From: Escherichia coli
Lineage (GTDB): Bacteria > Pseudomonadota > Gammaproteobacteria > Enterobacterales > Enterobacteriaceae
DNA: 42,323 bases
NCBI RefSeq assembly: GCF_003334315.1
Contig: NZ_QOWR01000043.1
Direction: 5' to 3' (one strand)
Numbering within the stretch: position 1 is the first letter of the stretch; each line of letters starts with the position of its first letter. The notes below the pieces were generated by a model. The model saw only the letters and a program-made list of their open reading frames with translations. It did not search any database and had not been told where the DNA came from. The position numbers and the translations under genes are program-made. Shown in pieces: positions 5,197-7,242 of the stretch.

Positions 5197-5326
5197 AGTG
5201 TGGTAGAATATCAGCTTACTATTGCTTTACGAAAGCGTATCCGGTGAAATAAAGTCAACCTTTAGTTGGTTAATGTTACACCAACAACGAAACCAACACG
5301 CCAGGCTTATTCCTGTGGAGTTATAT

Positions 5327-5656
5327 ATGAGCGATAAAATTATTCACCTGACTGACGACAGTTTTGACACGGATGTACTCAAAGCGGACGGGGCGATCCT
5401 CGTCGATTTCTGGGCAGAGTGGTGCGGTCCGTGCAAAATGATCGCCCCGATTCTGGATGAAATCGCTGACGAATATCAGGGCAAACTGACCGTTGCAAAA
5501 CTGAACATCGATCAAAACCCTGGCACTGCGCCGAAATATGGCATCCGTGGTATCCCGACTCTGCTGCTGTTCAAAAACGGTGAAGTGGCGGCAACCAAAG
5601 TGGGTGCACTGTCTAAAGGTCAGTTGAAAGAGTTCCTCGACGCTAACCTGGCGTAA
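5327..5656 (+). CDS. trxA: Thioredoxin 1, 109 aa
   Basis: ORF 5222..5656; canonical start [18 protein letters not shown] at ATG 5327; WCGPC active site present. Confidence 0.97.
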
Positions 5657-5725
5657 GGGAATTTCATGTTCGGGTGCCCCGTCGCTAAAAACTGGACGCC
5701 CGGCGTGAGTCATGCTAACTTAGTG

Positions 5726-5754
5726 TTGACTTCGTATTAAACATACCTTATTAA
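5726..5754 (+). promoter_or_regulatory. Candidate sigma70 promoter for rhoL-rho (TTGACT, 17-bp spacer, TATTAA)
   Basis: -35-like ttgact at 5726..5731 and -10-like tattaa at 5749..5754, about 45 bp upstream of rhoL; motif inspection only. Confidence 0.35.
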
Positions 5755-5796
5755 GTTTGAATCTTGTAATTTCCAACGCTTCCCGTTTTATCTTAA

Positions 5797-5898
5797 ATGC
5801 GAAGTGAACAGATTTCTGGCTCGTCACTCAATCCGTCTTGTCGTTTCAGTTCTGCGTACTCTCCTGTGACCAGGCAGCGAAAAGACATGAGTCGATGA
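5797..5898 (+). CDS. rhoL: rho operon leader peptide, 33 aa
   Basis: Short ORF MRSEQISGSSLNPSCRFSSAYSPVTRQRKDMSR read directly from sequence, immediately upstream of rho; not in the supplied ORF track. Confidence 0.75.
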   Translation: MRSEQISGSSLNPSCRFSSAYSPVTRQRKDMSR

Positions 5899-5982
5899 CC
5901 GTAAACAGGCATGGATGATCCTGCCATACCATTCACAACATTAAGTTCGAGATTTACCCCAAGTTTAAGAACTCACACCACT

Positions 5983-7242
5983 ATGAATCTTACCGAATTA
6001 AAGAATACGCCGGTTTCTGAGCTGATCACTCTCGGCGAAAATATGGGGCTGGAAAACCTGGCTCGTATGCGTAAGCAGGACATTATTTTTGCCATCCTGA
6101 AGCAGCACGCAAAGAGTGGCGAAGATATCTTTGGTGATGGCGTACTGGAGATATTGCAGGATGGATTTGGTTTCCTCCGTTCCGCAGACAGCTCCTACCT
6201 CGCCGGTCCTGATGACATCTACGTTTCCCCTAGCCAAATCCGCCGTTTCAACCTCCGCACTGGTGATACCATCTCTGGTAAGATTCGCCCGCCGAAAGAA
6301 GGTGAACGCTATTTTGCGCTGCTGAAAGTTAACGAAGTTAACTTCGACAAACCTGAAAACGCCCGCAACAAAATCCTCTTTGAGAACTTAACCCCGCTGC
6401 ACGCAAACTCTCGTCTGCGTATGGAACGTGGTAACGGTTCTACTGAAGATTTAACTGCTCGCGTACTGGATCTGGCATCACCTATCGGTCGTGGTCAGCG
6501 TGGTCTGATTGTGGCACCGCCGAAAGCCGGTAAAACCATGCTGCTGCAGAACATTGCTCAGAGCATTGCTTACAACCACCCGGATTGTGTGCTGATGGTT
6601 CTGCTGATCGACGAACGTCCGGAAGAAGTAACCGAGATGCAGCGTCTGGTAAAAGGTGAAGTTGTTGCTTCTACCTTTGACGAACCCGCATCTCGCCACG
6701 TTCAGGTTGCGGAAATGGTGATCGAGAAGGCCAAACGCCTGGTTGAGCACAAGAAAGACGTTATCATTCTGCTCGACTCCATCACTCGTCTGGCGCGCGC
6801 TTACAACACTGTTGTTCCGGCGTCAGGTAAAGTGTTGACCGGTGGTGTGGACGCCAATGCCCTTCATCGTCCGAAACGCTTCTTCGGTGCGGCGCGTAAC
6901 GTGGAAGAGGGCGGCAGCCTGACCATTATCGCGACGGCGCTTATCGATACCGGTTCTAAAATGGACGAAGTTATTTACGAAGAGTTTAAAGGTACAGGCA
7001 ACATGGAACTGCACCTCTCTCGTAAGATCGCTGAAAAACGCGTCTTCCCGGCTATCGACTACAACCGTTCCGGTACCCGTAAAGAAGAACTGCTCACTAC
7101 TCAGGAAGAACTGCAGAAAATGTGGATCCTGCGCAAAATCATTCACCCGATGGGCGAAATCGATGCAATGGAATTCCTCATTAATAAACTGGCCATGACC
7201 AAGACCAATGACGATTTCTTCGAAATGATGAAACGCTCATAA
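5983..7242 (+). CDS. rho: Transcription termination factor Rho, 419 aa
   Basis: ORF 5911..7242; canonical start [19 protein letters not shown] at ATG 5983; Walker A PPKAGKT present. Confidence 0.97.

Follow-up and report, generated by a model that had tools for sequence, protein, structure and literature searches.

[quoted passage not shown] Does the control of rho depend on this peptide and its translation, or on the promoter and the RNA in which the ORF lies? We studied this question in a window of 42,323 nucleotides of E. coli DNA; the window is the whole stretch that was analysed, and all the positions below are given in its coordinates. An earlier note on this DNA had placed the ORF behind a promoter match and had read the region as a leader for the autoregulation of Rho by Rho-dependent attenuation. 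The gene order around rhoL in the window was found to be rhlB(-)/trxA/rhoL/rho/wecA. The ORF was present between trxA and rho, all on one strand, which is the position expected of RhoL.

5327-5656, + strand: trxA, upstream of rhoL on the same strand
5797-5898, + strand: rhoL, 33 codons, ATG to TGA (UGA in the RNA), annotated as the rho operon leader peptide
5983-7242, + strand: rho coding sequence, from the annotation

The ORF was found exactly at the coordinates given in the earlier note (5797..5898, ATG..TGA, + strand). Its product, MRSEQISGSSLNPSCRFSSAYSPVTRQRKDMSR, contains 33 amino acids, and the gap to rho, which had been put at about 85 nucleotides, was 84 nucleotides (5899-5982), ending at the rho ATG at position 5983. 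The note had also proposed a comparison with annotated rhoL, which proved the two to be the same gene. A query of 351 nucleotides (5650-6000) was present in all 5426 of 5426 complete E. coli genomes, where the ORF is annotated as rhoL, "rho operon leader peptide RhoL", and about 90% of the 5426 genomes were 100% identical over 5690-5990. Across 801 nucleotides, no mismatch was found to K-12 MG1655, where rhoL is b3782 (3966231-3966332; the window coordinate is the K-12 coordinate minus 3,960,434). The RhoL peptide matched the NCBIfam equivalog NF007433 with 95.2 bits (E = 1.5e-27, residues 1-33 of 33), above the curated cut-off of 85 bits. The locus is therefore the rhoL-rho leader of E. coli K-12, with no sequence difference, the same annotation and a peptide that passes the family cut-off. 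It is a known, annotated element, and the leader has long been known for Rho autoregulation. By themselves, neither the ORF nor the promoter match is statistically remarkable; 51 ORFs of at least 20 amino acids overlapped the 3.3-kb stretch around rhoL. It is because of its identity to the annotated gene, and not because of statistics, that rhoL is a real, named feature.

In our study, neither the start codon nor the frame of rhoL was found to be conserved. The rho upstream regions were gathered by the conserved N-terminus of rho and not by rhoL, in order to avoid bias. At least 120 loci were gathered from the Enterobacterales and other gammaproteobacteria; the Salmonella and Klebsiella reference genomes were not among them. 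The similarity of the peptides to RhoL fell to the background beyond the core of the Enterobacteriaceae. In the nucleotide alignment of the trxA-rho spacer, the ATG of rhoL was confined to E. coli and E. albertii. Among the 24 other Enterobacteriaceae, an ATG was found at the aligned start in one, which contained a stop at codon 4; net indels that were not a multiple of three were found in 16/24, and a stop inside the first five aligned codons in 18/24. The variation at the first, second and third codon positions was 0.148, 0.158 and 0.159 in the whole rhoL, without a third-position bias, and 0.098, 0.118 and 0.141 in its conserved core, whereas it was 0, 0 and 0.58 in codons 11-20 of rho, the control in the same species, where all the variation was found at third positions. 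Between E. coli and E. albertii, rhoL contained three synonymous changes, two non-synonymous changes and one nonsense change. When 1.84 billion representative proteins were searched exhaustively, RhoL gave only seven matches. One of them was a large cluster of 108 members on more than 1000 contigs, which takes in E. fergusonii (32 amino acids) and E. ruysiae; only Escherichia and Shigella names were found among the 15 members listed. The matches in Salmonella, Klebsiella and Citrobacter were singletons from single genomes with different N-termini. The earlier note had made its reading depend on the conservation of the leader ORF among enterobacterial rho upstream regions, and this conservation failed for the start codon, for the frame and for the codon periodicity.

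No Shine-Dalgarno sequence was found at rhoL, where the anti-SD duplex was +1.2 kcal/mol against -5.9 kcal/mol at trxA, and no run of one particular codon was evident on inspection of MRSEQISGSSLNPSCRFSSAYSPVTRQRKDMSR. Published Ribo-RET data contain a start signal at rhoL, which rises from 10.9 RPM to 42.5 RPM (3.9-fold) at low Mg2+; by these data, ribosomes initiate on rhoL at a low level in E. coli. Taken with the comparisons, rhoL appears to be a real, weakly translated ORF that is restricted to Escherichia, and nothing in the alignments indicates that a conserved mechanism involves the peptide or its translation. Because the peptide and the frame both lack conservation, rhoL would not belong to the core of that mechanism.

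What is conserved over the same nucleotides appears to be the pairing of the RNA. The elements of the leader are as follows.

5728-5982, + strand: probable rho 5' leader, about 255 nucleotides with the conserved promoter described below, G-poor (C 25%, G 17%)
5777-5806, + strand: hairpin H0 of the predicted fold, outer stem CGCUUC/GAAGUG, inner stem CGUUU/AAAUG
5818-5900, + strand: long imperfect hairpin across the body of rhoL, RNAalifold consensus of 26 species
5818-5825/5894-5900, + strand: H1, stem of the long hairpin
5837-5846/5883-5891, + strand: H2, stem of the long hairpin
5849-5854/5871-5878, + strand: H3, stem of the long hairpin
5908-5925, + strand: short conserved hairpin H4 (GGCAuGGaugaUCCUGCC), stems 5908-5914/5920-5925, RNAalifold

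The long hairpin contained a pyrimidine-rich 5' arm and a purine-rich 3' arm. In the long hairpin and H4 together, 96.1% of the cells were paired, against 34-49% in the slid controls. Compensatory change was found in 5 pairs, a number reached by 8 of 500 shuffles, and in 11 cells, a number reached by none of the 500. The support from covariation is moderate, with 5 of 28 pairs, related sequences and a structure drawn from the same alignment. The motif CAGGCATGGAT was found at -72 to -77 in the Enterobacteriaceae, Erwiniaceae, Yersiniaceae and Edwardsiella, and a block CCCGAGTTTAAGAAC at about -24 was kept in most of the sampled Enterobacterales families. The stability of the whole-leader fold was not unusual (z = -1.5). 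No Rfam family matched 5657-5982 at E <= 1; the sole Rfam match above the gathering score was the TrxA thermometer at 5257-5356.

The H0 stem, CUUC...GAAG, was found in about 18 Enterobacteriaceae, where it encloses loops of unrelated sequence, 6-17 nucleotides long. In the predicted fold, the AUG of rhoL (5797-5799) was base-paired within the inner stem of H0. This inner stem reads AAAUG in Escherichia alone, and no ATG was present there in the others, which suggests that an inner stem that happened to spell AUG may have been the origin of the rhoL ORF. The ORF would thus lie on an RNA element that is older than itself and would be specific to Escherichia. The roles of the hairpins in the regulation are putative.

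The annotation as a leader peptide implies another reading, in which rhoL is a true regulatory leader peptide and its translation, or the release or stalling of the ribosome at the UGA beside the C-rich spacer, controls the loading of Rho. Such a device would resemble tnaC before tnaA, mgtL and corL and would couple the dosage of Rho to the status of translation, at least in Escherichia. In its favour, the stop codon of rhoL (5896-5898) adjoins the rut-like stretch described below, a translating ribosome would need to open both H0 and the long hairpin, E. albertii, E. fergusonii, E. ruysiae and Shigella have retained the ORF, and the Ribo-RET signal rises at low Mg2+. However, the stronger signal may just mean more leader RNA, and the start lacks a Shine-Dalgarno sequence and is paired. 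The start codon, frame and peptide are not conserved beyond Escherichia, whereas the surrounding RNA and the autoregulation of Rho are, and the changes between E. coli and E. albertii do not suggest that the peptide is under purifying selection. Published work further reported that tetracycline did not significantly change the occupancy of RNA polymerase in rho, and that the deletion of rhoL has only a mild phenotype. The conserved upstream coding sequence of leader-peptide attenuation of the tnaC, mgtL or trpL type was not found in rhoL. We consider it unlikely that rhoL acts as a regulatory leader peptide.

The transcript in which rhoL lies could start from either of two promoter candidates, one of which overlaps the end of trxA transcription.

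5663-5709, + strand: trxA 3' hairpin, end of the trxA transcript (MFE of 5655-5725, -21.4 kcal/mol)
5693-5721, + strand: conserved candidate rho promoter, -35 TGGACG (5693-5698), 17-nucleotide spacer, extended -10 TG-c-TAACTT (5713-5721), probable start G5728 or A5729
5726-5754, + strand: promoter-like match of the earlier note, TTGACT (5726-5731), 17 nucleotides, TATTAA (5749-5754), predicted start near 5760-5762

The upstream candidate, TGGACG-17-TGcTAACTT, was found with the exact spacing in 29/30 Enterobacteriaceae and in 10/15 Erwiniaceae. It was also kept in Moritella, Idiomarina, Psychromonas and Cricetibacter (Pasteurellaceae), where the rest of the leader does not align. Judged as a pattern in a single sequence, it occurred about as often as chance predicts (6 and 3 matches against 4.0 expected). 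Its -35 hexamer shares nucleotides with the 3' arm of the trxA hairpin, and Term-seq 3' ends of trxA were reported at 3966142 and 3966145, which are window positions 5708 and 5711 (Adams 2021, supplement). Part of the conservation of TGGACG could accordingly serve the formation of the trxA 3' end and not a -35 element.

The earlier note had taken TTGACT-17-TATTAA for a good promoter and, if it were the main rho promoter in E. coli, the leader would be about 222 nucleotides with a start near 5760-5762. The sequence is indeed present upstream of the ORF, its -35 matches the consensus at 5/6 positions, the spacer of 17 nucleotides is optimal, and GTTTGAATCTT, just downstream of it, is well conserved. 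Its quality as a promoter match did not hold, however. The -10 lacks the near-invariant final T, and matches as good as this one occurred at chance frequency in the window (18 on the + strand and 11 on the - strand, against about 16 per strand in shuffles). TATTAA was limited to Escherichia and Citrobacter, and elsewhere the -10 was lost through indels. The arrangement TTGACW-N16-18-TAnnnW was found in 10/30 Enterobacteriaceae and not outside this family, in contrast to the upstream promoter, which is kept with fixed spacing across families. A stricter scan for promoters and terminators over 5200-6100 gave no sites, with a -10 rule that excludes both candidates.

The rho leader was reportedly mapped in the 1980s at about 255 nucleotides, which agrees with a start at 5728 but not with one at 5761. 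The conserved extended -10 promoter is probably the main rho promoter, with a start at about 5728-5729 and a leader of about 255 nucleotides; it is doubtful that TTGACT-17-TATTAA holds this role, although it could be a second, lineage-specific promoter. Conservation and the reported length of the leader make the upstream candidate the more likely of the two. With either promoter rhoL would lie inside the transcript, as both predicted starts are upstream of 5797; a start beyond rhoL, which would have spoken against the reading in the earlier note, is predicted by neither candidate.

Downstream of rhoL, the composition of the RNA was found to change.

5899-5997, + strand: C-rich, G-poor, largely unstructured stretch, likely Rho-loading (rut) site, which includes the weak rho start

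The spacer 5899-5982 contained 29% C and 14% G, and the 78 nucleotides from 5920 to 5997 were at the 99.5th percentile of C minus G within the 42-kb window. The earlier note had proposed to look for a C-rich, G-poor composition over 5760..5980; it was present in the spacer and the first bases of rho (5899-5997) and absent from rhoL itself, where C/G was 1.0. This value, together with a pyrimidine-rich 5' half that pairs with a purine-rich 3' half, led us to reject rhoL as the rut site. The comparison covered 114 gammaproteobacterial loci of more than 10 families in which the upstream sequence was long enough, and C exceeded G over the last 80 nucleotides before the rho AUG in 114/114 loci, against 46/114 for a control segment. 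The anti-SD duplex at rho was -1.4 kcal/mol against -5.9 kcal/mol at trxA; its median was -0.6 to -2.4 kcal/mol in nearly all the families and +0.4 kcal/mol, that is none, in the Aeromonadales. Poor coupling of translation to transcription at rho is thus indicated, judged solely by a sequence proxy, the weak anti-SD duplex. RNA of the rut type, C-rich, G-poor and unstructured and upstream of a termination zone, was found at 5899-5997, and this stretch is likely to function as the rut site, the exact position of which we infer from the composition. An N-terminally extended Rho starting from the ATG at 5911 was also considered and rejected, since indels disrupt this frame in several genera.

The termination zone itself is known from published experiments.

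6033-6070, + strand: zone of Rho-dependent premature termination, rho +50 to +87, Term-seq/bicyclomycin (Adams 2021, supplement)
5888, + strand: abundant RNA 3' end in the 3' arm of the long hairpin, Term-seq 3966322

A Term-seq 3' end at 3966467 (window 6033, rho +50) has a Rho score of 7.07, is called "Yes" for Rho dependence and is sensitive to bicyclomycin, and a Rho termination region was reported at 3966504 (window 6070, rho +87) with a score of 7.8 and p = 1.3e-215 (Adams 2021, supplement). The Rho-dependent 3' ends were found 40-150 nucleotides downstream of the C-rich stretch. In published ChIP data, RNA polymerase in rho relative to rhoL is increased 12-fold in the rho R66S mutant, and a similar ChIP result was reported in another study. 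In Salmonella, rho mRNA is raised by the depletion of NusG or by Rho Y80C, and the small RNA SraL was reported to pair with the rho leader, to overlap a putative rut site and to counteract the termination. Attenuation in the rho leader is attributed by reviews to Matsumoto 1986 and Barik 1985, and the autogenous regulation of rho is attributed by later papers to Matsumoto et al. 1986. According to these published data, rho is autoregulated by Rho-dependent premature termination. The reading of the region as a leader for Rho autoregulation by Rho-dependent attenuation, given in the earlier note, agrees with the termination at rho +50 to +87 and with the 12-fold rise of RNA polymerase in rho R66S.

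The 3' end at 5888 (about 6200 reads, present in 2/3 condition sheets) lies 91 nucleotides into rhoL and at -95 from rho. [quoted passage not shown] However, prematurely terminated transcripts that are trimmed by an exonuclease would also end at the foot of a hairpin, and no target or phenotype is tied to the RNA. The deletion of rhoL also alters rho in cis, and an IS2 insertion in rhoL was reported to reduce Rho to 40%. A trans-acting small RNA is therefore improbable in our judgement, and the 3' end at 5888 is most simply the trimmed product of terminated transcripts.

Taking these results together, the region 5693-6070 very probably comprises the rho promoter and a 5' leader in which Rho exerts classical negative feedback on its own gene. 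Transcription would start at about 5728 (5728-5729) from the conserved extended -10 promoter, and the leader would fold into H0, the long hairpin (5818-5900) and H4. The C-rich, G-poor tail, which continues into the rho start codon, where a Shine-Dalgarno sequence is almost lacking, would stay free of ribosomes. Because this stretch would be naked and the ribosomes slow to engage at rho, Rho could load on 5899-5997. Rho with NusG would then catch the RNA polymerase and terminate the transcription at rho +50 to +90, so that more Rho would lead to more termination and to less rho mRNA. The translation of rhoL would not be needed, and it is absent in most of the species that keep all the other features.

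Several known systems resemble this leader in part. The tnaC-tnaA leader likewise contains a short upstream ORF with a stop that abuts a Rho-loading region, and Rho-dependent termination occurs before or early in the downstream gene. In tnaC, the coding sequence is conserved, a Trp codon is essential and the ribosome stalls in response to a ligand, whereas rhoL was found to be without coding conservation or a Shine-Dalgarno sequence and is not known to contain a stalling signal. The leaders of rpoS (DsrA/ArcZ/RprA) and of Salmonella rho (SraL) are long 5' UTRs in which premature Rho termination is countered by a base-pairing small RNA. We searched the E. coli leader for a SraL site, and unlike the reported pairing in Salmonella, the predicted duplexes were no better than with shuffled sequences: without restriction, the duplex reached -62.1 kcal/mol, while shuffled sequences averaged -59.7 kcal/mol, and the best duplex in 24-nucleotide windows (SraL 35-48 with leader 5739-5753, -21.8 kcal/mol) was equalled by 35% of the shuffled leaders. 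Rho autoregulation in Bacillus subtilis and other bacteria, as reviewed, follows the same principle of Rho-dependent attenuation in the leader or the early coding region of its own gene, with sequences that are unrelated to the E. coli rho leader. Within the gammaproteobacteria, the excess of C over G and the weak Shine-Dalgarno sequence were conserved, whereas the hairpins were limited to the Enterobacteriaceae and near relatives.

What our study adds to the known K-12 locus is the apparent limitation of the ORF to Escherichia, together with the finding that conservation lies in the promoter, the RNA pairing and the composition. Deep conservation was seen for a promoter upstream of the one in the earlier note, for hairpins in the RNA and for the C-rich, G-poor sequence that precedes the weak start of rho. 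The label "leader peptide" implies a conserved, translated regulator, for which the comparative data give no support, and the conserved RNA of the rho leader has no Rfam family. These corrections would be useful for annotation and for the design of experiments on the rho leader. A more speculative picture, to which we give little weight, is that rhoL is a young ORF that arose in Escherichia when the variable loop and inner stem of an ancient hairpin of the leader happened to spell AUG, and that its translation, 3.9-fold up at low Mg2+, could open H0 and the long hairpin and alter the C-rich RNA that Rho can reach; a role of the fragment of about 160 nucleotides as a small RNA is a related idea. 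If this were true, it would provide an Escherichia-specific link between translation capacity and the dosage of Rho. Rho terminates a large share of bacterial transcription, and the circuit that sets the level of Rho therefore matters for global gene expression.

The sequence at the 3' end of trxA would be common to trxA 3'-end formation and rho initiation, since the trxA 3' hairpin overlapped the -35 element of the conserved candidate rho promoter (TGGACG, 5693–5698). The hairpin was devoid of a U-tract and its RNA 3' ends were present at 5708 and 5711. The features of the trxA-rho region are listed below.

Features of the trxA-rho region (coordinates, strand, description)
5196, minus strand: rhlB transcription start, the window equivalent of NC_000913.2 3963653
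5257–5356, plus strand: TrxA 5' UTR thermometer (RF02773), an Rfam match across the trxA start
5663–5721, plus strand: trxA 3' hairpin region with overlap of the candidate rho promoter, from the fold and RNA 3' ends
5888, plus strand: abundant Term-seq 3' end (about 6200 reads) at the base of the conserved hairpin, within rhoL
5911–5982, plus strand: upstream extension from an ATG in frame with rho, an ORF call
6180–6297, plus strand: second C>G stretch, rho codons 66–105, by composition

Of the three condition sheets, two list the Term-seq 3' end within rhoL, and it was missing from the sheet that contained the rho +50 end. This distribution points to a leader fragment of about 160 nucleotides that depends on the condition.

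Among the relatives, the leader motif GTCAGTTTGAAC was found in tandem duplication in two Pseudescherichia loci, with two copies in L027 and three in L096; the duplicated motif aligned to window positions ~5755–5766, just downstream of the position of TATTAA, the -10 element proposed in the earlier note. A 12-nucleotide deletion, aligned to 5966–5977, was found in three loci of Pluralibacter and relatives (L028, L084, and L106). The deletion removed most of the CGAGTTTAAGAA block, which lies just 5' of the rho start and is otherwise conserved order-wide; judged by this alignment, the block is thus not an absolute requirement.

The mechanical ORF 5911–7242 contained no stop between the ATG and rho and would add 24 N-terminal codons. 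The ATG was conserved because it lies inside the short hairpin H4 (5908–5925). As an alternative rho start it was rejected, since indels broke the frame in several genera in the alignment of relatives, and it is probably not used as such.

The RF02773 match scored 78.8 bits (E = 1.6e-13; gathering score 58). On the opposite strand, rhlB is listed as a leaderless mRNA, whose transcription starts at the first base of the start codon (Kim et al., 2012, Table S4).

The C>G stretch within rho was stronger than that of the leader. In the composition scan, its first 78 nucleotides (6180–6257) contained 41% C and 17% G, at the 100th percentile among the window. This stretch may be the counterpart of the attenuators that have been reported within the rho gene.
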